A DNA stretch of 64,000 nt, taken from Nitrospina sp. UBA6727. Lineage in GTDB: Bacteria > Nitrospinota > Nitrospinia > Nitrospinales > VA-1. Location of the stretch: contig DKID01000004.1 in assembly GCA_002454045.1 (NCBI GenBank), positions 6,259 through 70,258 on the forward strand, given 5' to 3'. A program made the translations under genes and the position numbers. Shown in pieces: positions 47,826 through 64,000 of the stretch. The notes below the pieces were generated by a model. The model ran no database searches. It saw nothing but the letters and a program-made list of their open reading frames with translations, and was not told where the DNA came from. How positions within the stretch are numbered: position 1 is the first letter of the stretch; each line of letters starts with the position of its first letter.

Positions 47826-47830
47826 AATTT

Positions 47831-49132: not shown

Positions 49133-50301
49133 GTGATCGCCTTTCCCCGCAAAGCCAAAGCGGGATCCATCCGCGCAATTTTCTTCACCAACGCCCAGGC
49201 GGAAACGATGACTAAAACTAGAACGATGACGACGGAGACTAAAATTTCCCGCGGCTGATAATCGGGATAGATCGTCTCCCGAACTGGGAACGAAGCTTCG
49301 CTCAAATGCGTCACGTCAATCCCGACTCCCTGAAACCAAACGAAAAAAGGAACGCCAAGAATCGCCGCCAGCGCCAAAGCCCACAACGCAGCGATTGCGC
49401 CTTCCAACATAAATATTTTGACGACGCGGCGGGCGTCCATACCCAAAGCCATCAAGGTTCCGATTTCTTTTTGCCTCTTGAAAATATTTAGGACTTGCGT
49501 GTTGAACACACTGGTGCAGACCAAAACCATCAACACTCCCCAAAGAATTTTGGAATTGATTCGGTCCTGATTTAGCAGGGCGAGAAGATCTGCCATGAGT
49601 ACTTCTATTCCGTGAAACTCAAATCCAGGCACCGCGCCCAAATACTCGCGAACCGCTACCCAACTCACTTCGCCGTCACGGCCGGTCATGGAACGCAAAT
49701 GATCCAGCCGCAACCAAACTACGCCGGCGTCAATCCGCGGATTAACGAAGTCGCCCACGTCCACGATTAAAATATCGCGGGCATCGACGGCGCCGCCTTT
49801 GTCGCGCCATTTCAAAACCACCGTGTCGCCTTTTTTCAAACGTGCTTTGTTCGCCATCTTGACACCCACCACCGCGGGAATTATTTCCGGCGCCGACTTG
49901 CCCGAAAAAGATTTCAATCCCGCCAACGGTAAATGAAGAAGAGACTGCTGCATCGCGATTCCCCGCAACTGGACTGGGAATAATCGGCGGCCAGGAAAAA
50001 GTTGTCCTTGCTGGACCAACACCTCCGCTTTGTTTCTTGCCGAAAGATTTTTCAACACTTCGGGCACGGGCGCCGTGATGTCTTCCCATTTTGTCGGCGT
50101 GAGAATGTCAAACCCGGGCGCTCGATAATGACCGCCGCCAACATCCGTCGACACCAAATTCCGCGTGGCTTGGGCTTGGAATCCATTCAACAAGGACAGC
50201 ATGAAAATGATAGCGATGATTGCCAGCGCCGTTATCAGCACATTCAGAAAAGCCCGCAGACCTTGACGGCGGAAATTTTTGCTCGCGATATTCCAGTTCA
50301 A
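49129..50301 (-). CDS. FtsX/MacB-type ABC permease (LolC/E-like), copy 1
   Basis: NWNIASKNFRRQGLRAFLNVLITALAI.. and a C-terminal FtsX domain are present. TTG 50301 overlaps the ATPase TGA stop as TTGA, so I prefer it over the track start 50337. Confidence 0.85.
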   Translation of the reverse strand: MNWNIASKNFRRQGLRAFLNVLITALAIIAIIFMLSLLNGFQAQATRNLVSTDVGGGHYRAPGFDILTPTKWEDITAPVPEVLKNLSARNKAEVLVQQGQLFPGRRLFPVQLRGIAMQQSLLHLPLAGLKSFSGKSAPEIIPAVVGVKMANKARLKKGDTVVLKWRDKGGAVDARDILIVDVGDFVNPRIDAGVVWLRLDHLRSMTGRDGEVSWVAVREYLGAVPGFEFHGIEVLMADLLALLNQDRINSKILWGVLMVLVCTSVFNTQVLNIFKRQKEIGTLMALGMDARRVVKIFMLEGAIAALWALALAAILGVPFFVWFQGVGIDVTHLSEASFPVRETIYPDYQPREILVSVVIVLVLVIVSAWALVKKIARMDPALALRGKAIT

Positions 50302-51008
50302 GTTTCTATCTCCGCGCCGTCGCGGCGTTTGTCCCAACTCACCTTGCCGTCTTCCAGCCGAACTTCCCGTCGGATATAACGAGTTACTTTTTCGTCGTGA
50401 GTGGAAAAAATCACCGCCGCTTTGTATTCGCGATTGAGTTCCCGCATCAGTTCTAAAATCTGTAGCGAGTTCTCCGAATCGAGATTGGCAGTCGGCTCAT
50501 CGGCGAGAATGAGCAGAGGGTCTTTGACCAATGCCCGGGCTATCGCCACCCTTTGACATTGTCCGCCCGACAACTGTGCCGGTTTTTTGCTGATGTGCTC
50601 CGTCAAACCTACTTTGGCGACCATGCTCTCAACCCGTTCGCGGACGCAACTTTCTTTCCGTCCATTCAAGATTAACGGGAAGAGAATATTTTCATAAACC
50701 GAGTAAACCGGTAGCAGATTAAAAGTTTGGAAAATGAAACCAATGTTTTCCCTGCGATACGCCGCCAACTGGCTCCGCCCCATGTTTCCCAAACTGGCTC
50801 CATTGAAAAAAACTTCGCCGGTGGTTGGGCGGTCTAATCCTCCGATTAAATTCAACAGAGTAGTTTTCCCGGAACCGGAAGGTCCGACGAATGACATGAA
50901 CGCGCCCTCGCCCACCGCCATGCTGACGTCGTTCAGGGCGGTGAAGTTTTCTTCCCCAACGCGATAAACTTTTGAGACTCGTTCAAGCGTGATCAAAGTT
51001 TCATTCAT
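50298..51008 (-). CDS. ABC transporter ATP-binding protein (LolD/MacB-ATPase family)
   Basis: Walker A GPSGSGKTT, Q-loop, LSGGQCQRVAIARAL and Walker B LILADEPT are present. Confidence 0.95.
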   Translation of the reverse strand: MNETLITLERVSKVYRVGEENFTALNDVSMAVGEGAFMSFVGPSGSGKTTLLNLIGGLDRPTTGEVFFNGASLGNMGRSQLAAYRRENIGFIFQTFNLLPVYSVYENILFPLILNGRKESCVRERVESMVAKVGLTEHISKKPAQLSGGQCQRVAIARALVKDPLLILADEPTANLDSENSLQILELMRELNREYKAAVIFSTHDEKVTRYIRREVRLEDGKVSWDKRRDGAEIET

Positions 51009-51020
51009 CCCGCGATATTC

Positions 51021-52268
51021 CTAAAAATAATTCACCAGCGTTAAACCTAATGAAGATTCCGTCCCGTTGAAGCGATCCGTTTTGTGAAACAAACGCCCGT
51101 CTTTTTTTCCCGACTTCAAACTGCCGCCTACCTGCCCGTGAAGATAGAGAAACAAAGCGTCGGTCAGCGCGTATTCAATTTGCGGGACGAGACGAAAACT
51201 TTTATCGCGCAAATCATAAAATCCGAACAGTTGCCACTGAATATCAATTCCCACCGGCTGGTCGAGAGTAATCCCGATTTGCTGAAAGGTTCGCCGCTTC
51301 CCCGCGTCGGCGGGGTCGACATCGTCGGAACCGAAATTTTTTTGTCGGGTGGTGAGGAAATATTCCGCCAAAACATGCAAACCTTCACCGATGGCAAAAG
51401 TATAATCCGCCCCGAAAACCGTGTCGAATTGAATCGGTTTAGAAGGCTTCGTTGCTATGTCCAAACGGCTTTCGTGCCAAAAGCCAAATCTTTTTTCCCC
51501 CTTCAAATGATAGCCGACCTGCACCATCTCATGATTGAAACCCGGCAAATCATCCAAGTCGGATTTCGGATGATACTGAAACACCGCGCCCGTTTCGACA
51601 CCGCCGACCAGCATCTCGCCGCGCATTCCAAAAATCCAGGCGTTACCTTTTTTCGCCGGAAGTAGCCAGCCTTCAACAAGAGACGTCGCGGACAAAAAAT
51701 GGGTGGCGCGCACTCCGTCAACGCCTCGGGTTTCCAGGACGACACCGGCGACATTGCGTGTATCAAAAAATCCTAGCGGGCGAAATATCGTTGCGGAACC
51801 AAAAATAATTTTTTGTCGTCCGCCCCTGATTTTGAATTTTTCGTTATCCAAGCGGAGCCATGCCCGGAAAAAATCCACATCCGTTCCCGAGCGAAGTCCC
51901 GATTGCACGCTGGGACCATCCGCCTGTTTCGCATCGGCGGATAATTCATAATCAAGAACCCAGCCGTCTTTTTCGATCAAGCCACCCAGCACGCCCAGTC
52001 GCAACTCTAACTCGCTATCAAAATTTTTATGGGAAGGCGGGCTGTCAACGAGGTTGCGGCCCATCTTTAACCTGCCTTCAAAATCCACATCAAGCGCCCA
52101 TGAAGTAGAGTCGGGCAAAAGCAAAAACGCTAGCAGAAGCAAAAACGCTAGCAGAAGCAAAAACTTTGGGAGCTTCTTTTTCAATTTACACGGTTGGGTT
52201 TGAGTAGGAGGAAAATTGTTCGGCGCTAGACACTCGCGCGGCGAAGTGAGTTTTTGGAGTCGCCGCAA
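51021..52268 (-). CDS. Predicted outer-membrane beta-barrel protein heading the Lol-like ABC operon
   Basis: It has alternating amphipathic beta-strand patterns throughout and a C-terminal ..LGLTLVNYF (aromatic terminus). The signal-peptide-like core is KFLLLLAFLLLLAFLLLPDSTSWA. The start is uncertain: TTG 52268 or in-frame TTG 52184, which gives MKKKLPKF... Confidence 0.6.
   Translation of the reverse strand: MRRLQKLTSPRECLAPNNFPPTQTQPCKLKKKLPKFLLLLAFLLLLAFLLLPDSTSWALDVDFEGRLKMGRNLVDSPPSHKNFDSELELRLGVLGGLIEKDGWVLDYELSADAKQADGPSVQSGLRSGTDVDFFRAWLRLDNEKFKIRGGRQKIIFGSATIFRPLGFFDTRNVAGVVLETRGVDGVRATHFLSATSLVEGWLLPAKKGNAWIFGMRGEMLVGGVETGAVFQYHPKSDLDDLPGFNHEMVQVGYHLKGEKRFGFWHESRLDIATKPSKPIQFDTVFGADYTFAIGEGLHVLAEYFLTTRQKNFGSDDVDPADAGKRRTFQQIGITLDQPVGIDIQWQLFGFYDLRDKSFRLVPQIEYALTDALFLYLHGQVGGSLKSGKKDGRLFHKTDRFNGTESSLGLTLVNYF
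52121..52164. repeat. Perfect 18-bp tandem repeat (2.4 copies) inside the signal-peptide region of the beta-barrel gene
   Basis: The unit gcaaaaacgctagcagaa occurs at 52121-52138 and 52139-52156, with a partial copy at 52157-52164. It encodes LLLLAF-LLLLAF on the minus strand. Confidence 0.9.
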
Positions 52269-52355
52269 TTCTTGAATCGTAAAACAAGTGACTCAATTTC
52301 GCGGCGCGCGATGACGGCACGCAGTGTCGCGGTTAGCCGATGAACGGCTTCCCGG

Positions 52356-52841
52356 TCAAAGCATTTTTTTAATATGCGACACCAATTGATTAGCACTGAC
52401 GGCCGGAGCCCGCGCGTTCAAAATACCCTTTTGGTCGATGATTAAAACGGTGGGCATGTCCCGTTGCGAGTAAGCCTGATAAACATTCTTCGTCGGGTCA
52501 ATCAAATAAGGGAACCGTGTATTTTCTGGAAACTTGCTTAGATACCTCGCGACGGCTTCTCGAGAATCTCCGTTGGTGTTGATCCCCAATATCGCCACTT
52601 GCTCCTCGCTCAACTGGTCTCTCACTTTATTAAATTCCATAGCCTGCTTCATGCACGGAACACAAATATGGAACATGCCGATTAAAACCACCTTGCCCTT
52701 AAAGTCCGACAACGCCACCTGTTTTCCATCCATGGACTGCAAAGAAAATTTGGGAGCTTGCTCGCCCGGTGAAGGAGGTCCCGCAAAAGTTGGGACGACC
52801 GCTAAAATCAGGAAGGCTAACGACAGAAATATTTTTCGCAT
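52356..52841 (-). CDS. TlpA/ResA-like periplasmic thiol:disulfide oxidoreductase
   Basis: The leader is MRKIFLSLAFLILAVVPTFA. The redoxin fold carries a CVPC active site (..GMFHICVPCMKQ..). ATG 52841 with ACGGAG RBS is preferred over the track start 52919. Confidence 0.85.
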   Translation of the reverse strand: MRKIFLSLAFLILAVVPTFAGPPSPGEQAPKFSLQSMDGKQVALSDFKGKVVLIGMFHICVPCMKQAMEFNKVRDQLSEEQVAILGINTNGDSREAVARYLSKFPENTRFPYLIDPTKNVYQAYSQRDMPTVLIIDQKGILNARAPAVSANQLVSHIKKML

Positions 52842-53196
52842 GACGCACTCCGTTTTATGAAAACATTTTATCAGAAAATCCGCTCTTAGAAAGAGAGCAA
52901 CTTTTACCATTGAGTCCATCTTAAATCAGAGCAAACTAATTTGAAAGAGATTTCAAAGACACGGGAAAAGCAACGTCCGTCGGCTGAAACTCTCCCTTGA
53001 CTTGTCACTGATTTTATACTAAAAGCGGGGGCAATCCGTTGACTCTCCTAGGCGTTGCACTGCGATGCGGGCTTTGATTTTAAGATAATAGTTGTCGTCT
53101 CGAAGCACCACATTCTTTGCGGTACGTCCCTCGGAATATCCTTTTTTCATCGCGTCAGGTTACAGCAGGCAGTCAAATTTATAAAAGGTTTTGAGT

Positions 53197-54054
53197 ATGA
53201 AAGAAGCATCGCTCTTCCCCAAAGTGTTGTTCGCTCTGGCCAGTTTGTTGGCTCTCTCCCTTCCAGCTTTTGCCTACCAGGAAATCAATGTGCAAAACGG
53301 AGGGACAATACAAGGGAAAACCAAAATGTTCGGCGGGATGCCGTTTCCCCGTCACTACCATTTGGTTTTATTCCCCAACATCGACATGTGTGCGGAAGTA
53401 GATACCGACGACGAAATGAACCGAGTCCTTGATGACTTCAAAGTTTCGCGGGACGGGGGACTCAAAGATGTGGTCGTCGCTCTGGAACATGTCGAAGCCG
53501 GGAAACCGTTCAACAAAGAACCGATAATGATCACTTCTGAAAACTGTAAATTTTTTCCAGACGTTAACGTGATTCGACAAGGAGAAACTTTTAAGATCGA
53601 CAATCTCGACGCGGTCATGCACAACAGCCAGGTCTATCAAAAAGAAAGAGGGAAAATCCTGCTAAACATTCCCATCCCCGCCGAGGAAGTTTCGGACGGG
53701 ACAGTCAATTTCGAAAAAAATTATAAGATCATGCAGATGATTTGCGGGATGCACGAGTTTATGCAGACCTGGGGGTTGAGGGTGCAAAATCCCTATTACT
53801 TCATAACCGAACTAGATGGAAACTTCCGCATCGGAGATGTTCCGCCGGGAGAATATATCGTTACCGCCTGGCACTATTTGATGAAGCCGCAGAAAAGAAA
53901 AATTAAAATCATCGGCGGCGAAACAATTAACCTGAATTTCGATTTCGATGGCGACAAGGTTGTCCGGCCTGTTTACGAAACCATCAAATCTGGAAGAATC
54001 AAAAAAGACGCGGTGTACCCGGGAACTGCAAAAGGAAAAGAATTGGGACGCTAG
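53197..54054 (+). CDS. Secreted amicyanin-like cupredoxin plus CarboxypepD_reg-like beta-sandwich protein (paralogue B)
   Basis: The leader is MKEASLFPKVLFALASLLALSLPAFA. Candidate type-1 Cu ligands are ..NLDAVMHN.. and CGMHEFM (C-x2-H-x2-M, nt 53743-53763). The C-terminal part is ..VQNPYYFITELDGNFRIGDVPPGEYIVTAWH.. Confidence 0.7.
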   Translation: MKEASLFPKVLFALASLLALSLPAFAYQEINVQNGGTIQGKTKMFGGMPFPRHYHLVLFPNIDMCAEVDTDDEMNRVLDDFKVSRDGGLKDVVVALEHVEAGKPFNKEPIMITSENCKFFPDVNVIRQGETFKIDNLDAVMHNSQVYQKERGKILLNIPIPAEEVSDGTVNFEKNYKIMQMICGMHEFMQTWGLRVQNPYYFITELDGNFRIGDVPPGEYIVTAWHYLMKPQKRKIKIIGGETINLNFDFDGDKVVRPVYETIKSGRIKKDAVYPGTAKGKELGR

Positions 54055-54055
54055 T

Positions 54056-55960
54056 TTGAAGCCATCGAAAAAACCCGGCACTCTCCAGCGGCTCGGTATA
54101 TTTCATCTGCCCATTTTATACACCGTGGCAATGTCCGCCGCCGCGTGGGGATTCCCCCCCCCTCCCCCCCCCGAAGACGTCCCCAAAACTTTCACCCTGA
54201 AAAATAAACAGGTCGCCCTTCATAACCTGAGCAATCCTTATGAAGATGACCCCGACGCCATTGCCGACGGCGGCGCCTTATACACAGCGCATTGTCTTTT
54301 CTGCCACGGTGATTTGCTCGACGGCAACGGTCTGTTCGGAAAAAGTTTTTTCCCGCCGCCCGCAGATTTTACCCGACGCGACTCCATCCTCTCTCGACCG
54401 CAGGCTTATACTTTCTGGCGCATCATGAAGGGAGGCAAAGGGCTTCCGGAAAAATACGAACCGTGGAACTCCGCCATGCCAGCGTGGGAAGAGGCGTTGA
54501 GCGCGAACGACGTTTGGAAAATCATCACCTATATTTATCAGACGACACGGCAACGGCGCGCCAAACCTGGGCAACAAGCACCGCCGTCGATGAAAAGAGG
54601 CAAGCAGATTTACTTGGAAAAATGCGCCAACTGTCACGGTGAAAAAGGAAAAGGCGATGGACCGTCCGCCGATTACTTCATGCCGCAACCGAGAAACCTG
54701 ACCAAGGGCCATATCAAAATTCGCTCCACTCCATTTGGGAAAATTCCGACCGACGCAGATTTATTCGACACCATCACCAACGGGATGCAAGGAACCACCA
54801 TGCCCGGCTGGAAACATCTCCCCGAAAATGACCGCAAGAGTCTGGTGATATACGTCAAGTCTTTGTCGCGAAAGTTTGCGAAGTTTGAGAAGAACGGCAA
54901 AACTCATAAGACCGTGAGGATAAACGCGGCGCCGACTTTGTCCCGCGAAAGTGTGGCGCGGGGGAAAAAAATGTTTATGGTTCATTGCTCCGGCTGCCAC
55001 GGCGTTGAAGGGCGCGGCGATGGAGCAACCACCCAACGCATCGTAGATTATTCGTCCAGCGCCATCTGGCCCAGAAACCTGCGCCAACCGTGGACCTTTC
55101 GCGGCGGCAGTTCCCGCAACGATATTTTCAAAACTCTGCGCACCGGTCTTTCCACCACCGCCATGCCTAAGTTTTCAACGAGAGTTTTCAACGACGAACA
55201 AATCTGGGACGTCGTCAACTTCGTCAGCACATTGTCCGCCGCCGCCGAGCCGAAACCGCAAACCCACATTCACGCCAAGAAAATTGCGGGGAAAATTTCA
55301 GACGACCGCGCCGCGTCCGTTTGGAAAAACGTTCAAGCCAACTACATTCCATTAGGAGGCCAACTGCAGACAAAACCGAAATCCTATTTTCCCACCGTCC
55401 AAAGTTTAACCGTGCAAGCGGTACACGACGGCGAAGAAATTGCACTTCACATCCATTGGGATGACCCGTCCCTCGACCCAGCACTAAAAGCGTTTGCGGC
55501 GGTTGCGGAATCTCCGCCGCCGCCTCTTCCCGATGACACCATGCGAAGAACGGACGAACCTTCGGAACCCGTCGTCCCCGAATACCCCGACGCCATCGCG
55601 GTACAATTTCCCGTTAATCTAGACACGCCGCGAAAACCTTATTTTCTTAATGGCGACGCCGACCATCCCGTGAACTTGTGGCGATGGACGACCGCCACCA
55701 ACGAAGCCGAAGAGATGAACGCGAACGGATTAGAAAATTGGCGCGCGCAAAAAGATTCAGCGGTTCGCGCCAAAGGTAATTTTCGGTTCGGGAAATATTC
55801 GCTGATTTTGAAACGCGCGCTGACGGGGGATGACGAAGACATTCAGTTTCAAATCGGCAGACCCATTCCCATCGCCTTCAACGTTTGGGACGGATACCAC
55901 GGCGAGACCGGCAACAAAAAATCCATCTCCAGTTGGTTCACCCTCCTGCTGGACGAGTAA
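54056..55960 (+). CDS. Tri-haem c-type cytochrome fused to a C-terminal EB_dh/DOMON-like (type-II DMSO-reductase gamma-subunit-like) domain
   Basis: Three CxxCH motifs are present (CLFCH, CANCH, CSGCH), each followed by an MPAW/MPGW/MPKF-type Met region. The C-terminal ~230 aa read ..DAIAVQFPV..PYFLNGD..PVNLWRW..ILKRAL..IPIAFNVWDGYHGETGNKKSISSW.., which resembles the ethylbenzene-dehydrogenase gamma family. The proposed start, TTG 54056, lies 1 nt after the upstream TAG stop and gives the leader KPSKKPGTLQRLGIFHLPILYTVAMSAAAWG. Confidence 0.8.
   Translation: MKPSKKPGTLQRLGIFHLPILYTVAMSAAAWGFPPPPPPEDVPKTFTLKNKQVALHNLSNPYEDDPDAIADGGALYTAHCLFCHGDLLDGNGLFGKSFFPPPADFTRRDSILSRPQAYTFWRIMKGGKGLPEKYEPWNSAMPAWEEALSANDVWKIITYIYQTTRQRRAKPGQQAPPSMKRGKQIYLEKCANCHGEKGKGDGPSADYFMPQPRNLTKGHIKIRSTPFGKIPTDADLFDTITNGMQGTTMPGWKHLPENDRKSLVIYVKSLSRKFAKFEKNGKTHKTVRINAAPTLSRESVARGKKMFMVHCSGCHGVEGRGDGATTQRIVDYSSSAIWPRNLRQPWTFRGGSSRNDIFKTLRTGLSTTAMPKFSTRVFNDEQIWDVVNFVSTLSAAAEPKPQTHIHAKKIAGKISDDRAASVWKNVQANYIPLGGQLQTKPKSYFPTVQSLTVQAVHDGEEIALHIHWDDPSLDPALKAFAAVAESPPPPLPDDTMRRTDEPSEPVVPEYPDAIAVQFPVNLDTPRKPYFLNGDADHPVNLWRWTTATNEAEEMNANGLENWRAQKDSAVRAKGNFRFGKYSLILKRALTGDDEDIQFQIGRPIPIAFNVWDGYHGETGNKKSISSWFTLLLDE
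54154..54172 (+). repeat. C9-T-C9 homopolymeric tracts inside the cytochrome gene (these encode PPPPPP)
   Basis: Counted directly: C x9 at 54154-54162, T at 54163, C x9 at 54164-54172. Confidence 0.95.
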
Positions 55961-56103
55961 CCGCCGGCGTGGCGACGACATGGGCGGGACAAAAAAACGA
56001 AGCCGCGCGAACAAGAGTTTGAGTTTCTGATTTTTTGGTACCGACTAAAGATACGAACTGCAACGCAGTGACTATTCCAAAACCAAAATTTTTGCGGGGT
56101 TTG

Positions 56104-56310
56104 CTAAGGCTGGTTATTGCTCGTGGAGGTGTCTGATAGTTCCTTTAGTTCGCCCCACAATAAATTAACCTCATCAGAAAGGCTGTCTACTGTTTCATTA
56201 ATTTTTCTTATATAGACAAAAATAACCAGTGCGGCGATAGTAGGTATCCCCACAGCAATCACCGCCATCAATATGGAAATAATTTGCAGGTAGATGTCGA
56301 GGTTCATCAT
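56104..56310 (-). CDS. Small single-TM hypothetical protein (68 aa), AT-rich
   Basis: MMNLDIYLQIISILMAVIAVGIPTIAALVIFVYI.. is followed by an acidic tail. Its start abuts the stop of the upstream 76-aa ORF. Confidence 0.4.
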   Translation of the reverse strand: MMNLDIYLQIISILMAVIAVGIPTIAALVIFVYIRKINETVDSLSDEVNLLWGELKELSDTSTSNNQP

Positions 56311-56541
56311 TTAGCCTCGCTGTCTTCGGGTAGGCCTTCCTCTTTCGGTTTGCTCTCTCTCCCATTTTAGGGCGGCGGCGATAGTTGTCGCGCTACCCAC
56401 TTTCGTTATGTGTCCGTCGTCCCCATACGTTTGTTGGTGTTCCTGTTCGCGCCTTTCGGGGTCATTGGTTATACCGGTATGAAGAATCTTATTTCCTTGC
56501 TTGAAGTGGTATTTGTAGGTGTCTCTTGACATAGTCGCCAC
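56311..56541 (-). CDS. Small GIY-YIG-like (URI-domain, COG2827-type) protein (76 aa)
   Basis: YKYHFKQGNKILHTGITNDPERREQEHQQ..KWEREQ follows the GIY..YIG..R..H..E spacing of mini GIY-YIG proteins. GAGGTG lies 6 nt upstream of the ATG. Confidence 0.5.
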   Translation of the reverse strand: MATMSRDTYKYHFKQGNKILHTGITNDPERREQEHQQTYGDDGHITKVGSATTIAAALKWEREQTERGRPTRRQRG

Positions 56542-56674
56542 CTCTTTTCATTGACTGGAAAAACAATTTAGCGTGTCAGATAACCGCACGTTTGTCAAGT
56601 GTTTTCACTATTGTAAAAGGTGTGTTGAGAGGCAAGGTCACGGCGTGACGGCGGCGTGGTAGCGGGTGGAAAAA

Positions 56675-56711
56675 CAGCACCGGGACTGGTGTCCCGGTGC
56701 TGTATTTTTTT
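56675..56711. terminator. Strong, potentially bidirectional rho-independent terminator
   Basis: A perfect 12-bp stem CAGCACCGGGAC / GTCCCGGTGCTG has a 4-nt loop (TGGT). It is flanked by AAAAA on the left and TATTTTTTT on the right. It lies ~110 nt downstream of the paralogue-C stop on the minus strand. Confidence 0.7.
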
Positions 56712-56822
56712 CGAGGATGCCTTGAATAAATGCGAGGTCTTATCTTGCGGCATTTTACGCGCCGCTTTATTGAACGGGCTAATGCCTTGCGCATTTTTTT
56801 ACGCGGTGCTCTTGAAAATTTT

Positions 56823-57635
56823 CTACTTGGCGGTCAGCGTGAAATTGGCTTTTGCCTCGCCATCACTGACTGTGATGTCCATCGTGGATTCGCCAACATA
56901 GGGTTGCCACGCGGTCACTTTGTACTTGCCGGCGGGAATCCCGTCAATTTTGAAGGCGCCGTCAGCACCTGTGAGGGCGTAGTAAGGATTCCACACGATG
57001 CGCGCGTCGGCTTCCATGAAGTTGTGTTGGTCGCATTGTAGAAAAAAATGTTTGTCTTTCTTTTTCTTGAACCGCGCAATATTTTTGGTGACGTCTGCGA
57101 CGTCGCCTTTGTTTGGCAACGGTTTGTTGAACAGTGTTTTGCGGCTCGCACCGGCTATCGAATACCCGTGCGGATTGTGGAGAATGTCGGGGTCATGGTT
57201 CACAATTTTCACTAGGCCGCCTGCTTTTTTCTCGGCTTTGGAAGGTTTGCGGATGACGCCCATTTTTTGTCTGATGTCGCATTTCTCGAAATCGAAAACC
57301 ATCTTGCCGCCGTCGCCCCAAGGCTTGCCGGATTCAATATTTTCGATGAAGACGACGGCGTCTTTCAACTTGCCGTCGGTGGCTGTGACTTTGACGCGGG
57401 GTCTTATCCCGCCTTCTTTGGTGTCGGGATGCGTGACGCAGAACTCAACGTTTTTGCCTTTGTTCAAGTCTTCCATGATGGGCGCCATCACTTTGCCTTT
57501 GACCATGACGGTGCCGCTGATGGAACCTGCGCCGGCGGAACTTTCTTTGTATTTATATTTCGCCGCAAAACTAGTGGAAACTGCCAACGCTATCGTCAGC
57601 GAAGCAACCACCGCACCTAAAACAATCTTCTTCAT
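56823..57635 (-). CDS. Secreted amicyanin-like cupredoxin plus CarboxypepD_reg-like beta-sandwich protein (paralogue C)
   Basis: ATG 57635 has an AGGAGG RBS. The leader is MKKIVLGAVVASLTIALAVSTSFA. Candidate Cu ligands are ..NHDPDILHN.. and CDQHNFM (nt 57015-57035). The C-terminal part is ..VWNPYYALTGADGAFKIDGIPAGKYKVTAWQ... It starts 59 nt downstream of the giant MCO. Confidence 0.7.
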   Translation of the reverse strand: MKKIVLGAVVASLTIALAVSTSFAAKYKYKESSAGAGSISGTVMVKGKVMAPIMEDLNKGKNVEFCVTHPDTKEGGIRPRVKVTATDGKLKDAVVFIENIESGKPWGDGGKMVFDFEKCDIRQKMGVIRKPSKAEKKAGGLVKIVNHDPDILHNPHGYSIAGASRKTLFNKPLPNKGDVADVTKNIARFKKKKDKHFFLQCDQHNFMEADARIVWNPYYALTGADGAFKIDGIPAGKYKVTAWQPYVGESTMDITVSDGEAKANFTLTAK

Positions 57636-57694
57636 TTCTTTTTTTCCTCCTAATAGAAATTCAAAAATACATCGCACACGTTCGTCTGTGCTTA

Positions 57695-60600
57695 TCACAT
57701 CGCCCGCTCATCGTCCTTGGTTCGGGAAGCGGATTTTTCTACTTCTTGCTGCGGCTGGGACGCAGTCTTCACGCCCTTCATCGTCGCTTTGCCCAACGGC
57801 AAAATGGAGCGGTCGCCTTCTGGCAACACTTTGAAATATCCCCATTGGCCTGCTTGCTGATACGGCGTTCTCGCGTTCAACCATAAGTAGGTGCCGGGAT
57901 TATTATAGGTTCCGCCGGCGGTGGTGTAGGCTTGAATATACTCGGCGGCGCCGAATTGCTCGGCGTCGATCATGTCGGAACCTTCTTGGTCCATGTGACG
58001 ACGCCACTGGTGACCGTCTAGATTGAACACTTGGTTCTGCTCGTTATGCGCGCCGAAAATGTTGATCATGATTCGGTCTCCGGCGTGGGCTTTCAACGTC
58101 GGTGTCGCCGGGTCGGAATCCGCCGCGACGCAAGCCGTGAACATATTGCCCAATTCGCAACCTTCATCTTCGCGATAGAGCCACGGCTCCAAGCGATAGT
58201 TGACGCCCGTCAAGCCCGCCACGTTTTGCAGGTAAGGCATGAAGGACGTACCGATGATGTTGTCCTCGTCTTGAAAATACAAAGCGAAGTCGCGGTAGTT
58301 ATCGATGTTCGCATTTTCGGGATACGACTTATCGATGATGACGTCGGCTTTCCAGGAATTGCCGAGCGAAATATCTTTCCCGGTCTCGGGGTCGCGATAC
58401 ACCGAACCGCGCGGGCCGATGATGATGCCGCCGTATAAACCGTCGCGGATGTTCGTCGTTAGGTTGCCGAAATCCCACAGCAACGCGCCGTTGATTTTGA
58501 ACCCGGGGTGCGCGTAGAACGTATAGTTTTTCGATTTGCCCGGCGCCACCGTTTGGTCGCCGCGGTTATTCCCCACGTTGATGCCTTGGGAATCTTTGGG
58601 GTCAAACGCGATGTTGTTCGCGTGGATGGACACCCTGCCTTCTTTCAGGCGGTTGGTCAATTTGATTTTGACGCAGTCGCCGATGTTGACGCGCAAGGTC
58701 AACGGATGCGGCATGTGTCCTTCTTCCGCCGCCTGCTTGACTTCGCCTTCCAGCGTAAAAATTTTCGCGCTGGCATTGGCAAGCAGAAGTTTGCGTTCAA
58801 AGTCAACTTCAATTTCATCTTCCGCGTTGGGATGAAACTTCAATGCTTTGTCGATGGCGATGACGCTGAATTTTTTAACCGGCGCACTTTTCGCGCACAA
58901 AGTCTTCTTAACTTTTTTCTTGAAGTCTTCGTTGCCGGGGAGAACCTGTAAATCTTTTTGCATCTCATCATGCACGCGGATAATCCCCCAACTCCCTTCG
59001 GACAACTTGGAAGTTCGCCCGTTATAGTACAGATAGTCGCCGGCCATTTGCTGGAAGCCGCCGGCTTTGGTGGGCAGGTCGTAGCGTTCGGCAATGCCGA
59101 CATGAATCGTGTTCGTCACGCGGGAGTCGCGGTCGTATCGTTCCGGCCGATAACCATGCCCCGACACCGCAAAAGTGTGGGTCTCGTTTTGCATGCCCGC
59201 CAAAAGTCGGAAGACGATGTTGTCGCCGACATAAGCCCTCAACATGGGCGTGGAGGGGTCGCCGTGTGTCTTGCTGTGGAACACTTTGGAGGCGTCTTTG
59301 TTGCTCGCAAGTCGCGACGCCAACGAGGCGGCTCTGAAATTAAAAGCGCCGCCGGTGGTGTGAGTCCCGCCGTTCAGCAGCGGGAAGGCGACTTCCAACA
59401 TGTCGGAGGGCATCTGAAAAGAAATCGACTGCCCCGCGGCGATGGCGTTCTCGCGCGTTAGTCCCGGCGGATTTCCCGCGGTCACCAACTGCGCGGTGTG
59501 CGGGACGGTGTCGTTCACTTGCGCCACCAATTCGCGGAAACTTCCTTGCGTGTTGTAGCCGACAATTTCGGTGCTGTGAATGTCGGCCACTGGGCCGCTG
59601 CGAATTTGCTTGCCGGTTTTCGGGTCGTGATAGGTGGACCCCCACGGTTCGGCAATCGTGGAGCCGATGCCGCCGTGTGGCCAAGTGGTCGCGCCGAAAG
59701 CGTGGTCGTGCCAAAACACTAAACCTAAATCGACGTCCACCCACCAGCGGTAACGCACATATTCAGTCGTGACAATCTGTCCTTTTTTGTGCGTGTGCGT
59801 CATTCCCTCGGTGAACTTAATTGTGTACTTGCCGTCTTTGGATGGACCTTTGTTCGGGTCGGGCGAGATGCTTTTAATCCAGCGGGCGTCTTTCCCGTTC
59901 GGGACTTCAATGCCGACGATGATGTCGGCGCCGACGTGGTAGGTGGGCGAATGTTCCGCCATCTGAATTTGGATTGTGTCGTCGCCGGGTTTCGTCGCCT
60001 TCAACAATTTGGCATTCATCGGCACCGGCATGCCGACGTGATGCCCGTCTTTCATTTTCTTGGTGAACTGTTTGTAAGACCGCATCGATTGGTCGTAGGA
60101 AAAACCGGTGATGACGCCGTCGGAGGCTTGATTGTCAAACTGGAAAAAGTGCGGATGAATGTTCACCTTGGACATTTGGAAGTTGGTGAAATCGTCGTCG
60201 TCCCATTCGCTGGACAACAACACGTCAACGCAGTCATACACGTTGGCGCGGATGACCAGCGGATAAGCCTTCTTCGGGTCGGCTTTCACCGCCGCCATAT
60301 CTTCATCGATGACGTAGATCAAACCGTATTTGTCGATGACCGGCGCGGTCTTCCCGACTTGCCCGGTAAGTTCAATCGGCGTGTTGATGAAATGCAGATT
60401 GTATTGTTTGCGCCCGGCGCCTTTCGGACAAAGGCTCCATCGCCCCTGCTCGCCCGGTTTTGCCGGCGCGCTACTTTCTATGTTCGCGGCGGAACGCCCG
60501 CTGCCGGATTCCGTCTTGGCGATGATCTCGTCGTCCGTCTGCAAATGGAATGGTTCCAGCCATGGCGCGCCGCCGTGATGACGGGCGAACGGAACGCGCT

Positions 60601-62647
60601 TGCCAAAATGCGGGGCTAGATGCGGCCACGCTAGTTTGCCGTGCTGGTCAAACTGGATCGGATGACGCTTGCCGGGATGCGGCGATTTGTACTTCGGCCA
60701 CTCGACCACCGTTTCCCGCTCGGACAAAACCCGATTGCCCTTCCAAGCGTAATCCCACACCGAGCCGTCATACGCCTTAATCTGTTTGATCGGGTCGTCG
60801 TGGTGACCGGGCTGCCCCTGCGGCGGGAGCATATACTTCACCCAATCTTTGATGTTGACCACGGGAATTTCTTTGCTCCAATCGCTTTTGCCTTTGCCGA
60901 CAATTTTGAATTTCTTGCCGAACCAATCCATCGTCTTGCCGACGAGTTTGTCGGACGATTGTCCATGCGGAATTCTCCCGGCACGGTCGGGCAGTTCTAG
61001 CAACGGACGCATGACGTCGGTGCTACCCGTCGGATAGTTGCCGTCTTGCAGGACGTTATACACCCGCCAATATCCCCACATCCCCGCGACATAATGATGC
61101 GCAACGTGGCAATGAAATAGGAAGTCGCCCGCCAAACGCTGACAAAGTCCGGAGCCGCATTCGGTTTCCAAATCCATCACTTCCGAGGGACCAATCACCT
61201 GCACGTCGACGCGGTCGGAAGTCGTCCGGATGACGGGATACTTCACGGGGCCGTCGTAACCCGCCGTGGTCAAGTTGAGCAACTGTTGCTTTTCGCGTTG
61301 CGGGGAACGTGTCCAGCGGATGGTTCCGCCGTGCGGATGGTGGGAATGGAACACCTCGCCGCCGCCGTGCACAAGGCGAAACTTGGCGGGGTCGCCTAAG
61401 TAGGAACGCGGAATCGTGGTCGGAGCGTCGCCGAAGGTGTAGGAGCTGTACGCCAGCGACTCGTCTTCAAAATGAAATTTCTTTTCCTGCACGGCGAGAT
61501 TATTGATGCCGAACGGCTCGGAGCGAAAGTTTAAGGCGCGCGCCGATGGACGGTATGCGTCCGTCTGCGGGTCGCGTTGCGGAATCATTTCGCCGTGGCG
61601 GTTGAGCGGACGAAATGATTCGTCGCCGACTTCGTGATACATCAGGGTAAATTCGCGGAAATCTTTGGCGTCGTCGTTGACGATCATCGCCATCCAACCG
61701 CTTTCCAGGGGACCGCCGGTCCACGGGTCTAGGTAGCGGGAACCGCGCGGCTCAACGATGAACGTCCCGATTAATCCCAGTGAGGAAGGGTCGCGGCCGG
61801 CGTGATTTTGGATCATGTGCCCGCCTTCCTGTTCGTCAATCGGAACATACCATTCGTATTCTTGCGTCTCGCCCGCCGCCACGATGGAGCCCGGCGTGGC
61901 CGCCGTGTTGGGCTGACCGGTGGAACTGATGATCATCGCGGAACCGTTTATCTGAAAACCGGCGTCTTCATCTTCCAACTGATTGGTGAATTTTACGCGG
62001 ACGCATTCTCCTTGATTGCCGCGGATGACCAAGGGTTGGATGGCGTCGCCTTGGAGTCCGTTGGAAACCGCGCCGGGGTCTAACCCGTCTTCACGCGCCG
62101 CCGCGTTCTTTTTTTCTTCGGCGCGAACTTTCTCGATGTCTTGTTCCAGAATGTACATGTAACCGGGATAATAATCGCCCCATTGGTTGAGGGTAATTTC
62201 CACGTTGATGGCGGCGACGTTATATTGTTTCGTGGGGATGTTGCTGGGACAGTGCGCGCCTCTGTACACTTTGGCGGCGGCGTCGGTGGGACCGAGGAGA
62301 TAACTTTGCCCTAACTGGTGAGCAGCCCATGAGTCGTTGAATCCCCCGCCCGTTGCGGCCGGGCTGGCGTGCTCTTTTAATTTGGATTTTAACTGGTCCA
62401 TAACTTTCATCATGGTGTTGTCCAGTTTTTCCTGATTGCCTTCCAGTCCCGACATCAAATCTTCATGCGCGAGTTGCTTCTCAAGTTTTTCCAACCACGC
62501 CGGTTTTTCCACCGCGGAGTTGGCGGAACCGTGACCGTCATGGTCCATCGAAACCGCGCCGACGGGGGCGCCGAATCCCAACGCCGAAAGCGAAAGAGTG
62601 ACCGCTAACGCACAAAAGTTTTTCCATCCTTTTTTGACACCAAACAT
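57695..62647 (-). CDS. Giant (1650 aa) secreted multicopper-oxidase-like protein built from three tandem MCO-like modules
   Basis: It has a Sec-type leader (..FCALAVTLSLSALGFGAPVGA) and a canonical T1/T3 motif HCHVAHHYVAGM (res 512-523, nt 61079-61114). Other motifs are HSHHPH (434-439), HPH (831-833) and WHDH (979-982). Module-opening and module-closing motifs each recur three times (see findings). Confidence 0.85.
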   Translation of the reverse strand: MFGVKKGWKNFCALAVTLSLSALGFGAPVGAVSMDHDGHGSANSAVEKPAWLEKLEKQLAHEDLMSGLEGNQEKLDNTMMKVMDQLKSKLKEHASPAATGGGFNDSWAAHQLGQSYLLGPTDAAAKVYRGAHCPSNIPTKQYNVAAINVEITLNQWGDYYPGYMYILEQDIEKVRAEEKKNAAAREDGLDPGAVSNGLQGDAIQPLVIRGNQGECVRVKFTNQLEDEDAGFQINGSAMIISSTGQPNTAATPGSIVAAGETQEYEWYVPIDEQEGGHMIQNHAGRDPSSLGLIGTFIVEPRGSRYLDPWTGGPLESGWMAMIVNDDAKDFREFTLMYHEVGDESFRPLNRHGEMIPQRDPQTDAYRPSARALNFRSEPFGINNLAVQEKKFHFEDESLAYSSYTFGDAPTTIPRSYLGDPAKFRLVHGGGEVFHSHHPHGGTIRWTRSPQREKQQLLNLTTAGYDGPVKYPVIRTTSDRVDVQVIGPSEVMDLETECGSGLCQRLAGDFLFHCHVAHHYVAGMWGYWRVYNVLQDGNYPTGSTDVMRPLLELPDRAGRIPHGQSSDKLVGKTMDWFGKKFKIVGKGKSDWSKEIPVVNIKDWVKYMLPPQGQPGHHDDPIKQIKAYDGSVWDYAWKGNRVLSERETVVEWPKYKSPHPGKRHPIQFDQHGKLAWPHLAPHFGKRVPFARHHGGAPWLEPFHLQTDDEIIAKTESGSGRSAANIESSAPAKPGEQGRWSLCPKGAGRKQYNLHFINTPIELTGQVGKTAPVIDKYGLIYVIDEDMAAVKADPKKAYPLVIRANVYDCVDVLLSSEWDDDDFTNFQMSKVNIHPHFFQFDNQASDGVITGFSYDQSMRSYKQFTKKMKDGHHVGMPVPMNAKLLKATKPGDDTIQIQMAEHSPTYHVGADIIVGIEVPNGKDARWIKSISPDPNKGPSKDGKYTIKFTEGMTHTHKKGQIVTTEYVRYRWWVDVDLGLVFWHDHAFGATTWPHGGIGSTIAEPWGSTYHDPKTGKQIRSGPVADIHSTEIVGYNTQGSFRELVAQVNDTVPHTAQLVTAGNPPGLTRENAIAAGQSISFQMPSDMLEVAFPLLNGGTHTTGGAFNFRAASLASRLASNKDASKVFHSKTHGDPSTPMLRAYVGDNIVFRLLAGMQNETHTFAVSGHGYRPERYDRDSRVTNTIHVGIAERYDLPTKAGGFQQMAGDYLYYNGRTSKLSEGSWGIIRVHDEMQKDLQVLPGNEDFKKKVKKTLCAKSAPVKKFSVIAIDKALKFHPNAEDEIEVDFERKLLLANASAKIFTLEGEVKQAAEEGHMPHPLTLRVNIGDCVKIKLTNRLKEGRVSIHANNIAFDPKDSQGINVGNNRGDQTVAPGKSKNYTFYAHPGFKINGALLWDFGNLTTNIRDGLYGGIIIGPRGSVYRDPETGKDISLGNSWKADVIIDKSYPENANIDNYRDFALYFQDEDNIIGTSFMPYLQNVAGLTGVNYRLEPWLYREDEGCELGNMFTACVAADSDPATPTLKAHAGDRIMINIFGAHNEQNQVFNLDGHQWRRHMDQEGSDMIDAEQFGAAEYIQAYTTAGGTYNNPGTYLWLNARTPYQQAGQWGYFKVLPEGDRSILPLGKATMKGVKTASQPQQEVEKSASRTKDDERAM

Positions 62648-62763
62648 TTCTGCCTCCTAAAAATAGTGCGCTAAAAATGGCTACACGAAAACCGCCGATG
62701 CTATTCTTCGCAAACTTTGCGGCGAACCCGCCGTATCATTTCGGATAGACAACCCTACCAAAT

Positions 62764-64000
62764 TTATTTTGCTCTCGCAAGTTCCAGATGGAATTTGTCG
62801 CCATTTCTCCAAACCAGCAGAAAGAGCGGGCTTCCTTCCCGAACTTTTTCCACTAGCCCGCCGAATTTGCGGCGACTTTCCACGGTCTCGCCGTTGACCG
62901 CGACGATTAAATCCCCCGACCGCAATCCCTTGGAAGTGGCGGGGCTTGCCGGGTCAACTCGCACCACCAAAGCCCCGGCGGGCAGGTTCGTCCCATTTTC
63001 GGAATCCGCCACGGTGAACCCCAGTCCCAGTTCCGACGACTGCACCGGCGGCAAAGTCGCCAACTGCGTCATCCTCTTTTTCCGCGACTCCAATTTGACG
63101 GGCACCACTTTGTACTTGTCCTCACGGAGAATATCCAGGTTGATGGTCTGCCCCGGCGTGATTGCGCCAATCACCCGGATCATGCTGTTCGGCGAGTTGA
63201 TGGCTAATCCGCCAATCTTCAAAATGATGTCCCCGACGCGGAGCCCCGCCACGTCCGCCGGGTCTCCCTCAAAAATAGAATTGATGACGACGCCTTCGCC
63301 CGCCCGCGCCTTCGCCAGCCGCTTCGCCACGTCCTCCGAAACCGGGTCGATGCCGACGCCGAGCCAGCCGCGGCGCACCTCGCCGTGTTCCACCAACTGC
63401 TCCACCACATGCTTGACCATGTTCGACGGAATGGAAAAGCCGATGTTCTGCGCGTAGTTGATGATCGCCGTGTTGATGCCAATTACTTCCCCCCTGATGT
63501 TGAGCAACGGGCCGCCGCTGTTGCCCGGATTGATGGAGGCGTCCGTCTGGATGAAATCTTCGTAGCGGGAAAGATTGACGTTCTCCCGCTTCAGTCCGCT
63601 GACGATGCCAAAAGTTGTGGTGTCGTTGAGCCCGTAAGGATTCCCCACCGCGACCACCAACTGCCCGACGCGGACTTCGCTGGAGTCGCCAAACTTAACT
63701 TCGGCAAGCGGCGTCGCGGATGAAATGTGAACGACCGCCAAGTCGGTGTCTTCGTCAACGCCCAACACTTCGCCGACAATCACCCGACCGTCCGTGAGAG
63801 TCACCTTGATGCTCTCGACGCCGCGCACCACGTGGCTGTTGGTAACGACGAAACCACGCGCGGCGTCATAGATCACCCCCGCGCCGGCGTTGACCGGTGG
63901 TCGCCCGCGGCCGGGCAGTCCTTGCGAGACGGCACCGTCGGCGACATGGGGCGACAGGCTGACGACCGCGGGACGAACTCGGTCGGCGAGTTCCACCAAC
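62764..64000 (-). CDS. htrA: HtrA/DegP-family periplasmic serine protease with two PDZ domains. The N-terminus lies beyond the right window edge.
   Basis: ..TDASINPGNSGGPLLN.. carries the catalytic Ser. PDZ1 is ..GVVINSIFEGDPADVAGLRVGDIILKIGG.. and PDZ2 is ..ALVVRVDPASPATSKGLRSGDLIVAVNGE... The ORF is open to the window end. Confidence 0.9.
   Translation of the reverse strand, partial: LVELADRVRPAVVSLSPHVADGAVSQGLPGRGRPPVNAGAGVIYDAARGFVVTNSHVVRGVESIKVTLTDGRVIVGEVLGVDEDTDLAVVHISSATPLAEVKFGDSSEVRVGQLVVAVGNPYGLNDTTTFGIVSGLKRENVNLSRYEDFIQTDASINPGNSGGPLLNIRGEVIGINTAIINYAQNIGFSIPSNMVKHVVEQLVEHGEVRRGWLGVGIDPVSEDVAKRLAKARAGEGVVINSIFEGDPADVAGLRVGDIILKIGGLAINSPNSMIRVIGAITPGQTINLDILREDKYKVVPVKLESRKKRMTQLATLPPVQSSELGLGFTVADSENGTNLPAGALVVRVDPASPATSKGLRSGDLIVAVNGETVESRRKFGGLVEKVREGSPLFLLVWRNGDKFHLELARAK

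Follow-up and report, generated by a model that had tools for sequence, protein, structure and literature searches.

The 64,000-nucleotide stretch of the Nitrospina sp. UBA6727 genome analysed here (contig DKID01000004.1, positions 6,259 to 70,258; hereinafter, the window) encodes a 1650-aa multicopper oxidase (MCO) in which, relative to laccases and ceruloplasmin, the C-terminal-type copper motifs precede the N-terminal-type ones. The question raised by this locus is whether such an arrangement denotes a lineage-specific permutation that created a new kind of MCO, as implied by the title of an earlier note made from the sequence alone, or a known architecture, and which electron donor the enzyme uses. 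The evidence described below indicates, with a probability that we put at roughly 85%, that this protein is a Sec-exported periplasmic MCO of the MnxG family that consists of three two-domain modules and forms one catalytic unit. The gene occupies 1650 codons and a stop codon according to the list of open reading frames (ORFs) and the translation:

57695..62647, minus strand: coding sequence of the MnxG-family six-domain MCO, 1650 aa, with the stop codon at 57695-57697

A phmmer search against solved structures retrieved MnxG of Bacillus sp. PL-12 (PDB 9bxa_A) with an E-value of 5.4e-94. This match consists of seven aligned stretches, six of which are colinear and one of which pairs the C-terminal module of MnxG (1073-1214) with domain 4 of the query; module 3 alone also hits 9bxa_A (E = 4e-66), with alignments to every one of the three MnxG modules. 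When the AlphaFold2 (AF2) model of residues 125-1245, built from a 40-sequence ortholog alignment, was compared to known structures with Foldseek, 9bxa came first (E = 1e-42, TM-score 0.26) and the six-domain proteins factor V, factor VIII and ceruloplasmin came next, and all matches were to MCO and cupredoxin proteins. The earlier note had likened the protein to the very large Mn-oxidizing MCOs of the MnxG class, correctly, and the caveat it attached, that this was analogy and not evidence of homology, is too cautious given the phmmer E-value. The similarity to MnxG and the length of 1650 aa (above 800 aa), as well as the placement, judged by the motif positions and the internal alignment, of the trinuclear cluster (TNC) between domain 2 and domain 3, and of the sole mononuclear site in domain 2, are those of the bacterial MnxG-like six-domain MCOs as defined by Vasin et al. 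(2013).

The internal structure of the protein supports the same assignment. Regular expressions run on the translation find C[PA]x5K[QK][YF] only at C133, C740 and C1251, the Cys of PLx[IL]RxNxx[ED]CV at C215, C806 and C1325, and GxWG[YI]x[RK]V at 522, 1218 and 1600, so that each of the thrice-repeated signatures of module opening, paired Cys and module closing reported previously is at its residue. The three tandem modules that these signatures had been taken to delimit are recovered by pairwise BLASTP alignment as well (modules 1 and 2, E = 3e-12; 1 and 3, 1e-17; 2 and 3, 5e-17; 22-26% identity), and we judge them to be true paralogs that stem from a triplication rather than chance resemblances:

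61058..62251, minus strand: module 1, cupredoxin domains 1 and 2, residues 133-530, aligned to MnxG 3-378
58970..60430, minus strand: module 2, cupredoxin domains 3 and 4, residues 740-1226, aligned to MnxG 466-632 and 663-784
57824..58897, minus strand: module 3, cupredoxin domains 5 and 6, residues 1251-1608, with a Pfam Cu-oxidase_3 match at 1307-1413

Homology to MnxG extends over all three modules, each of which is therefore a pair of cupredoxin domains, for a total of six. A cupredoxin basis of the modules is also what the Pfam models indicate. Cu-oxidase_3 scores 50 bits on the whole protein, above the cut-off, and the MCO models applied to single domains weakly detect five of the six: Cu-oxidase_3 is found in domain 1, Cu-oxidase_2 gives a weak match in domain 2 and Cu-oxidase another one in module 2 (1132-1211), whereas domains 5 and 6 yield E-values of 1e-6 and 6e-4 in separate scans. 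Domain 3 is missed, probably because of an insertion of 105 residues.

All copper motifs map to the second half of module 1 and the first half of module 2:

61331..61348, minus strand: motif L3, H434-S-H-H437-P-H439, invariant in 114 of 114 sequences, aligned to MnxG HVFHYH
61079..61114, minus strand: motif L4, H512-C513-H514-x3-H518-x4-M523, two TNC His and the type-1 Cys, His and Met, invariant in 114 of 114
60149..60157, minus strand: motif L1, H831-P-H833, two TNC His, invariant in 114 of 114, aligned to MnxG HIH
59702..59713, minus strand: motif L2, W-H980-D-H982, two TNC His, invariant in 114 of 114, aligned to MnxG FHDH

Following the canonical MCO pattern, we take the HxxHxH motif at 434-439 to provide the type-1 His and two TNC His. 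By the same logic, HCHxxxHxxxxM at 512-523 contributes two further cluster His along with the type-1 Cys, His and Met, and HPH at 831-833 and HDH at 980-982 the remaining four cluster His. Both hallmarks of the MCO superfamily are present, namely, the type-1 set H434, C513, H518 and M523 in the context HxxHxH...HCHxxxHxxxxM, and four HxH motifs with eight TNC His (H437/H439, H512/H514, H831/H833 and H980/H982). In an alignment of the window MCO with 113 full-length relatives from Nitrospinota and Nitrospirota that are 55-87% identical to it (114 sequences altogether), all 12 ligands are invariant, and with them the eight cluster His of the earlier note. HCH occurs only once, at 512, with H518 and M523 following it, and the regular expressions confirm that C-terminal-type motifs are confined to module 1 and N-terminal-type motifs to module 2. 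The degeneracy of the equivalent positions elsewhere, reported for modules 1 and 3, is likewise apparent in the internal alignment, where FQINGS and MIQNHAG of module 1 and IHAN and LWDF of module 3, which has no HCH, stand opposite the true ligand motifs. In all orthologs, the motif equivalents of module 3 are degenerate, and because all its ligand positions are lost this module is read as a putative scaffold; domain 1 lacks copper ligands as well, domain 4 is copper-less, and the only type-1 site of the protein is in domain 2.

The four motifs correspond residue for residue to HVFHYH, HCHLYP(A)FGIGM, HIH and HDH of MnxG. In the chain of 9bxa, whose entry bears the title 'Mnx H340A', the HCHxxxH position opposite H518 is occupied by Ala; this Ala appears to be residue 340, and H518 would be the counterpart of the very residue that the depositors of 9bxa chose to mutate. 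Given this distribution of ligands, the TNC would have to form between domain 2 of module 1 and domain 3 of module 2; that the eight His converge on one site is suggested solely by the alignment to the solved MnxG. Under this scheme, the type-1 copper would sit in domain 2 (H434, C513, H518, M523), the TNC would span domain 2 (H437, H439, H512, H514) and domain 3 (H831, H833, H980, H982), and domains 1, 4, 5 and 6 would be copper-less scaffold, leaving one catalytic unit. As in the standard MCO cycle, electrons from the donor would enter singly, in four one-electron oxidations, at the type-1 copper of domain 2. By way of the Cys513-His bridge they would reach the cluster, located where domains 2 and 3 meet, and there O2 would be reduced to two waters.

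The possibility that the motif order reflects a true permutation peculiar to this lineage can be assessed by comparison with distant relatives. When 1.84 billion cluster representatives were searched exhaustively with HMMER, 397 clusters (50% identity) of the MnxG family were obtained at E <= 1e-30 and 1168 at E <= 1e-10. Among about 85 listed representatives of at least 1100 aa, nearly all contain HxxHxH followed by a single HCH 50-110 residues further on and, usually, by [WFY]HxH ~230-800 residues (typically ~400) after HCH; one protein is without HCH and one has a second HCH. The solved Bacillus MnxG carries the same order, and the modules are colinear paralogs with no sign of shuffling. 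Vasin, Klotchenko and Puchkova, in their analysis of 23 prokaryotic MnxG-like proteins, assigned the cluster to the interface of domains 2 and 3, and the type-1 site to domain 2, in all bacterial six-domain oxidases of this type, noted that the cluster of the algal Fox1 has the same position, and interpreted this as retention of one of three ancestral inter-module sites (Vasin et al., 2013; PMC3600357). The motif order is, thus, the normal, published architecture of the MnxG family and not a peculiarity of this protein, because the cluster uses the interface of modules 1 and 2 rather than the interface of the first and last domains that is employed in ceruloplasmin and laccases. A better reading of the layout is that the six domains form a ring with three equivalent inter-module sites, of which one was differentially retained. 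The 'reverse order' put forward in the earlier note therefore stands as far as the assignment of the cluster halves to the C-terminal part of module 1 and the N-terminal part of module 2 is concerned, but not as an oddity, since this is the standard layout of the family.

The Nitrospirota orthologs provide a further clue. In these proteins, domain 1 still has LHIHGS and HSH, with four His, and domain 6 a single His at the position of HCH, whereas in Nitrospinota, including the window MCO (equivalent residues 226-236, 276-287 and 1585-1604), both the domain 1 His set and the domain 6 His are lost. These remnants look like a vestige of a second trinuclear site, between domains 6 and 1, or possibly belong to a different metal site; the former possibility would fit stepwise loss from a multi-site ancestor rather than a permutation. 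In view of the order of motifs in MnxG, in the distant representatives and in the published survey, we regard the permutation as refuted and give it next to no credence.

A catalytically dead, structural cupredoxin-repeat protein comparable to coagulation factor V appears just as implausible. Loss of all ligands in four of the six domains and the poor detection of the domains by the Pfam MCO models could be taken to point in this direction, but the 8 + 4 ligands are invariant in the orthologs of two phyla, and orthologous proteins are abundantly expressed in the ocean (PMC9477243).

The comparison with Bacillus MnxG reveals a common core and several differences. Both proteins are homologous over three modules and six cupredoxin domains, carry a single HxxHxH...HCHxxxHxxxxM in domain 2, with HxH and HDH coming next in domain 3, and are copper-less in the C-terminal half of module 2 and in module 3. 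However, MnxG consists of 1227 aa compared to 1650 aa in the window MCO, which has in addition an N-terminal extension of ~100 aa and a beta-rich insertion of ~105 aa in domain 3, and in which the segment between modules 1 and 2 comprises ~215 aa as opposed to ~90 aa. The window MCO also has a Sec leader and five invariant Cys pairs, whereas Bacillus MnxG has Ile at the position of C215. The MnxG of the Pseudomonas putida type, represented by the NCBIfam model NF041487, belongs to the same superfamily and has the same motif order, with the best match at residues 405-538 of the query, where L3 and L4 reside; however, the model has 1894 positions against 1650 residues, and the window MCO is not an equivalog.

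Ceruloplasmin, hephaestin and factors V and VIII share the arrangement of six cupredoxin domains as three two-domain modules. In ceruloplasmin, however, the TNC lies between domain 1 and domain 6, with type-1 sites present in domains 2, 4 and 6, whereas the window MCO has one type-1 site and a cluster between domains 2 and 3; domain 1 contains no HxH and domains 4 and 6 no HCH, unlike in proteins of the ceruloplasmin type. Fox1 of algae has in common with the window MCO the position of the cluster between domains 2 and 3 (PMC3600357). In two-domain laccases of the SLAC type, one subunit roughly corresponds to each module of the MCO, and module 3 matches several of these with E ~1e-5; however, such laccases are homotrimers with three clusters at the subunit interfaces, whereas the window protein is one fused chain in which two of the three sites are lost. 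A further close counterpart is the 'putative multicopper oxidase' of Nitrospina gracilis 3/211, named Nitrospinae MnxG by Saunders et al. (2022), an ortholog 78% identical over 97% of the length that shares all ligands and Cys.

Several observations weigh against the assignment to the MnxG family, or at least against carrying the function of MnxG over to this protein. The Foldseek alignment to Bacillus MnxG is only ~18% identical, and the score against the MnxG equivalog model NF041487 is 120 bits, far below the cut-off of 3100, so that transfer of the substrate by homology is weak. In the AF2 model (mean pLDDT 66.6, pTM 0.64), the L3/L4 region (429-527) has a pLDDT below 50 and is modelled as helices. 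No MnxE/MnxF-like accessory genes are found beside the MCO gene, which distinguishes the locus from Bacillus MnxEFG; the 9bxa entry, as its title 'Mnx H340A complex' suggests, contains MnxE and MnxF chains as well. An amicyanin-like partner gene lies next to the window MCO gene instead. Furthermore, the cleavage site of the leader and the pairing of the disulfides were read from the sequence, not computed, and the Mn function of Nitrospinae MnxG was described as unconfirmed (Saunders et al., 2022; PMC9477243).

Export of the MCO via the Sec pathway is indicated by the leader:

62555..62647, minus strand: signal peptide of Sec type, MCO residues 1-31, cleavage after VGA read by eye, no twin arginine

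Sec-type leaders are also present in nearly all orthologs, and the mature enzyme is presumably periplasmic. The absence of a twin-arginine motif, remarked upon in the earlier note, is borne out: the leader of the window MCO contains no RR, as opposed to Tat-exported MCOs of the CueO type, and the loose Tat-like pattern RRx[FGAVML][LIVMA] is matched within the first 45 residues by only 2 of the 113 full-length orthologs. Tat export was accordingly rejected.

Besides the type-1 ligand C513, the mature protein contains ten Cys, which are invariant in the 114 sequences, including the paired Cys of the modules whose conservation the earlier note had proposed to check. They form five local pairs, C133-C215, C740-C806 and C1251-C1325, one per odd-numbered domain, and C497-C502 and C1497-C1506. 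The (D/E)-C-(V/I/L/M) half of the module pair is present in 68 of 78 distant representatives; in Bacillus MnxG, the counterpart of C215, the one position visible in the alignments, is Ile (DIV vs ECV). We propose that the five pairs would become disulfides after Sec export and that copper would be loaded in the periplasm, which would explain the missing Tat motif.

The segments that have no counterpart in MnxG or differ from it in length are the following:

62252..62554, minus strand: N-terminal extension, residues 32-132, with a His-rich DHDGHG stretch at its start; the MnxG alignment begins at query residue 140
60431..61057, minus strand: inter-module segment, residues 531-739, containing the His-rich core 655-701 (nt 60545..60685) with GKRxPF
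59768..60085, minus strand: insertion of ~105 aa in domain 3, residues 856-960, where the MnxG alignment is interrupted from query 855 to 961

The N-terminal extension reads by eye as helix-prone, is absent from Bacillus MnxG, and is His-rich in the orthologs as well. The stretch 655-701 contains 8 His in 47 residues, as the earlier note had located it, but is not a loose linker: in the ortholog alignment, H701 does not vary at all, and conservation is at least 90% for H676, H680 and H691. The pattern G[KR]RxP[FYWL] recurs in 20 of 84 distant representatives, ~130-270 aa (mostly 140-190) past HCH, and AF2 confidence is low over the inter-module segment. By contrast, most of the domain 3 insertion is modelled with pLDDT ~80-90 and with beta strands and is predicted to be a beta-rich subdomain. 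Pfam scans of these three segments gave no significant match.

The second conserved element of the locus is a gene located immediately downstream of the MCO gene, which is flanked by this gene on one side and by a gene for an HtrA-type protease on the other:

56823..57635, minus strand: partner gene encoding a secreted 270-aa protein with an amicyanin-like blue-copper domain and a C-terminal CarboxypepD_reg-like beta-sandwich

The true start of this gene is the ATG at 57635, which is preceded by AGGAGG and gives the 270-aa product of the public record; the listed 291-aa ORF begins too early. Translational coupling through an overlap of the partner ORF with the MCO stop codon was rejected, given that this ATG leaves a spacer of 59 nt. 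The AF2 model of the partner has a mean pLDDT of 90, and its top Foldseek matches are amicyanins, whereas a sequence search against PDB found no chain at E <= 10. The ligand set H153, C201, H204 and M207 (His...Cys-x2-His-x2-Met) is invariant in nine distant homologs with 26-64% identity. Among the GTDB species representatives of Nitrospinota and Nitrospirota, with the partner sought within 2.5 kb downstream, it follows 57 of the 72 evaluable MCO genes, in 52 cases within 400 bp. Thus, operon linkage of the MCO and the blue-copper protein is shown. Most of the genes without a partner are second copies of a tandem MCO-partner-MCO arrangement, and one Nitrospinota clade also lacks an adjacent partner. 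Two MCO genes per locus are found in 13 genomes; several such loci that were inspected have the order MCO, partner, MCO, the second copy usually being without a partner of its own, and the window contains a single copy. The end of the two-gene operon might be marked by a hairpin:

56674..56703, strand not assigned: perfect 13-bp hairpin with a 4-nt loop, ~120 nt past the partner gene, with a T-run on the plus strand (from a consensus scan only)

This candidate may also act as a bidirectional terminator between the MCO operon and the convergent NxrC-like gene.

The genes around this pair show synteny with N. gracilis, where HtrA, the MCO, a cupredoxin-like gene, an NxrC-like cytochrome, another cupredoxin-like gene, a redoxin and an ABC transporter are arranged in the same way. 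The second cupredoxin-like gene (53191..54054, plus strand) encodes a secreted paralog that is 31% identical to the partner and has the same two-domain make-up; in both proteins, Pfam recognizes only the C-terminal domain, and the public annotation is merely 'carboxypeptidase regulatory-like'. Next to it, the gene at 54131..55960 (plus strand) encodes a 609-aa protein with three c-type haem domains fused to an NxrC/EbdC-like haem-b domain (gamma subunit of type II enzymes of the DMSO reductase family), the counterpart of the 'alternative NxrC' in the Nitrospina cluster associated with nitrite oxidoreductase (NXR); the listed 670-aa ORF begins too early. 

What, then, does the enzyme oxidize? 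Our tentative guess, which we hold at somewhat less than even odds, is that the physiological donor could be Mn(II), oxidized to Mn(III), in which case the amicyanin-like protein would be an associated redox partner. This guess is made because the nearest experimentally characterized relative found, Bacillus MnxG, is a Mn oxidase, because the clade belongs to the core genome of a Mn(II) lithotroph (PMC9040806), and because the abundance of the protein is highest at the top of the oxygen-deficient zone (PMC9477243). The orthologous group is not new to the literature. Lucker et al. (2013; PMC3578206) described the N. gracilis ortholog as a periplasmic MnxG-like multicopper protein similar to the Mn oxidase of Bacillus SG-1 and conserved in Nitrospira, and speculated that the Mn(III) it produces serves to fend off reactive oxygen species. 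In the Pacific metaproteomes of Saunders et al. (2022; PMC9477243), 'MnxG' ranked second in abundance among the oxidoreductases of Nitrospinae and reached its maximum at the top of the oxygen-deficient zone, and two novel MCOs were reported in the core genome of Manganitrophaceae (Yu et al., 2022; PMC9040806). A Manganitrophus ortholog is 59% identical to the window MCO. Levels of dissolved Mn(II) are raised at the top of the oxygen-deficient zone, in keeping with Mn(II) as the donor.

The main rival to Mn(II) oxidation is that the donor is the co-encoded cupredoxin itself, a proposal that we consider doubtful. The MCO would then oxidize the amicyanin-like protein and form the O2-reducing end of a short periplasmic path, in which the cupredoxin is fed by NXR-associated cytochromes or, in Manganitrophus, by Mn(II)-oxidizing cytochromes; the enzyme would be an oxygen-scavenging or alternative terminal oxidase, a copper-only branch of the NXR-linked chain. 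The conservation of the gene pair over two phyla speaks for this, as do the complete invariant type-1 ligand set and the cupredoxin fold of the partner. The nearby second paralogous cupredoxin and the tri-haem c/NxrC-like protein, an arrangement as in the NXR-associated cluster of N. gracilis (PMC3578206), point the same way, as do the metaproteomes, where MnxG correlates with NxrA in low-oxygen water (r = 0.64) and negatively with O2 (PMC9477243). However, a soluble oxidase would conserve no energy, the adjacent partner is missing for second tandem MCO copies and in one Nitrospinota clade, and the proposal is compatible with Mn(II) oxidation, so that the two are not mutually exclusive. A further point against it is that we know of no precedent for a six-domain MCO with a cupredoxin as the physiological donor.

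Alternatively, the protein could be a metal-homeostasis oxidase, that is, a cuprous oxidase or ferroxidase similar to CueO, CopA or ceruloplasmin that detoxifies periplasmic Cu(I) or Fe(II). In favour of this, ceruloplasmin and further six-domain relatives act as ferroxidases (PMC3600357), genes for a thioredoxin/SCO-like redoxin and a CopA-like oxidase are located within 15 kb, and DUF4149/CopD-like genes are found near the Nitrospirota orthologs. Nevertheless, this role is improbable: the window already encodes a dedicated CopA-type oxidase (44126..46156; copper_res_A, 440 bits), the nearest experimentally characterized relative is the Mn oxidase, and by eye the MCO translation contains no methionine-rich segment of the kind that is typical of CueO/CopA enzymes.

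At a still more speculative level, one can imagine that the MCO and its partner are an unrecognized periplasmic electron-transfer module of Nitrospina, Nitrospira and Manganitrophus that links the main energy substrate to O2 at very low oxygen levels, either as a cupredoxin-fed, copper-only terminal oxidase or as the missing Mn(II)-oxidizing entry point, with some of the electrons going through the cupredoxin into the respiratory chain; we consider this a long shot. Whichever the true donor is, Mn(II), the co-encoded blue-copper protein or another compound, its identity would tell whether nitrite oxidizers provide an enzymatic coupling of the nitrogen and manganese cycles in the sea. The protein is of environmental importance: in the mesopelagic Pacific, its orthologs rank with the most abundant oxidoreductases of Nitrospinae (PMC9477243), and they are part of the core genome of the Mn(II) chemolithoautotrophs, the only ones known (PMC9040806). 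This environmental abundance, together with the conserved blue-copper partner, makes the MCO a worthwhile biochemical target, and the ligand map, the predicted disulfides combined with Sec export, and the partner gene are handles for finding the donor.

In relation to the earlier descriptions, the group of orthologs has been noted since 2013, and the motif layout, although correctly described, is ordinary and by itself teaches nothing new. The present analysis adds the Sec leader, the five invariant Cys pairs, the conserved partner gene and the vestige in domain 1 of the Nitrospirota proteins.

The gene itself is preceded by a canonical ribosome-binding site:

62653..62658, minus strand: Shine-Dalgarno sequence AGGAGG, five bases upstream of the MCO ATG, read from the sequence

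A gene identical to that of the window MCO has already been called in GCA_002453875.1 (contig DKHT01000032.1), and the closest named relatives of the protein are from Nitrospinaceae. The antisense ORFs within the MCO gene (the largest of 276 aa) have no Pfam match, and an Rfam scan of 55900..63000 gave none either; we see nothing hidden on the opposite strand.

Further features of the neighbourhood are as follows. In N. gracilis, the gene that follows the partner encodes a 424-aa cytochrome c, whereas in the window two small unrelated ORFs of 76 and 68 aa are located in this place (56104..56541, minus strand), the latter with a hydrophobic helix and neither matched in NCBIfam; these may be an insertion that replaced the cytochrome gene. 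The region 47052..52919, beside the MCO cluster and syntenic with N. gracilis, encodes a LolA-like protein, two FtsX/MacB-type permeases, an ABC ATPase, an unannotated 415-aa protein and a TlpA/redoxin-type thioredoxin. The CopA-type copper-resistance oxidase mentioned above, which is encoded on the plus strand and has three domains, is extended at the C-terminus by ~170 residues that weakly match CopB, an outer-membrane copper resistance protein, and could be a CopA-CopB fusion.

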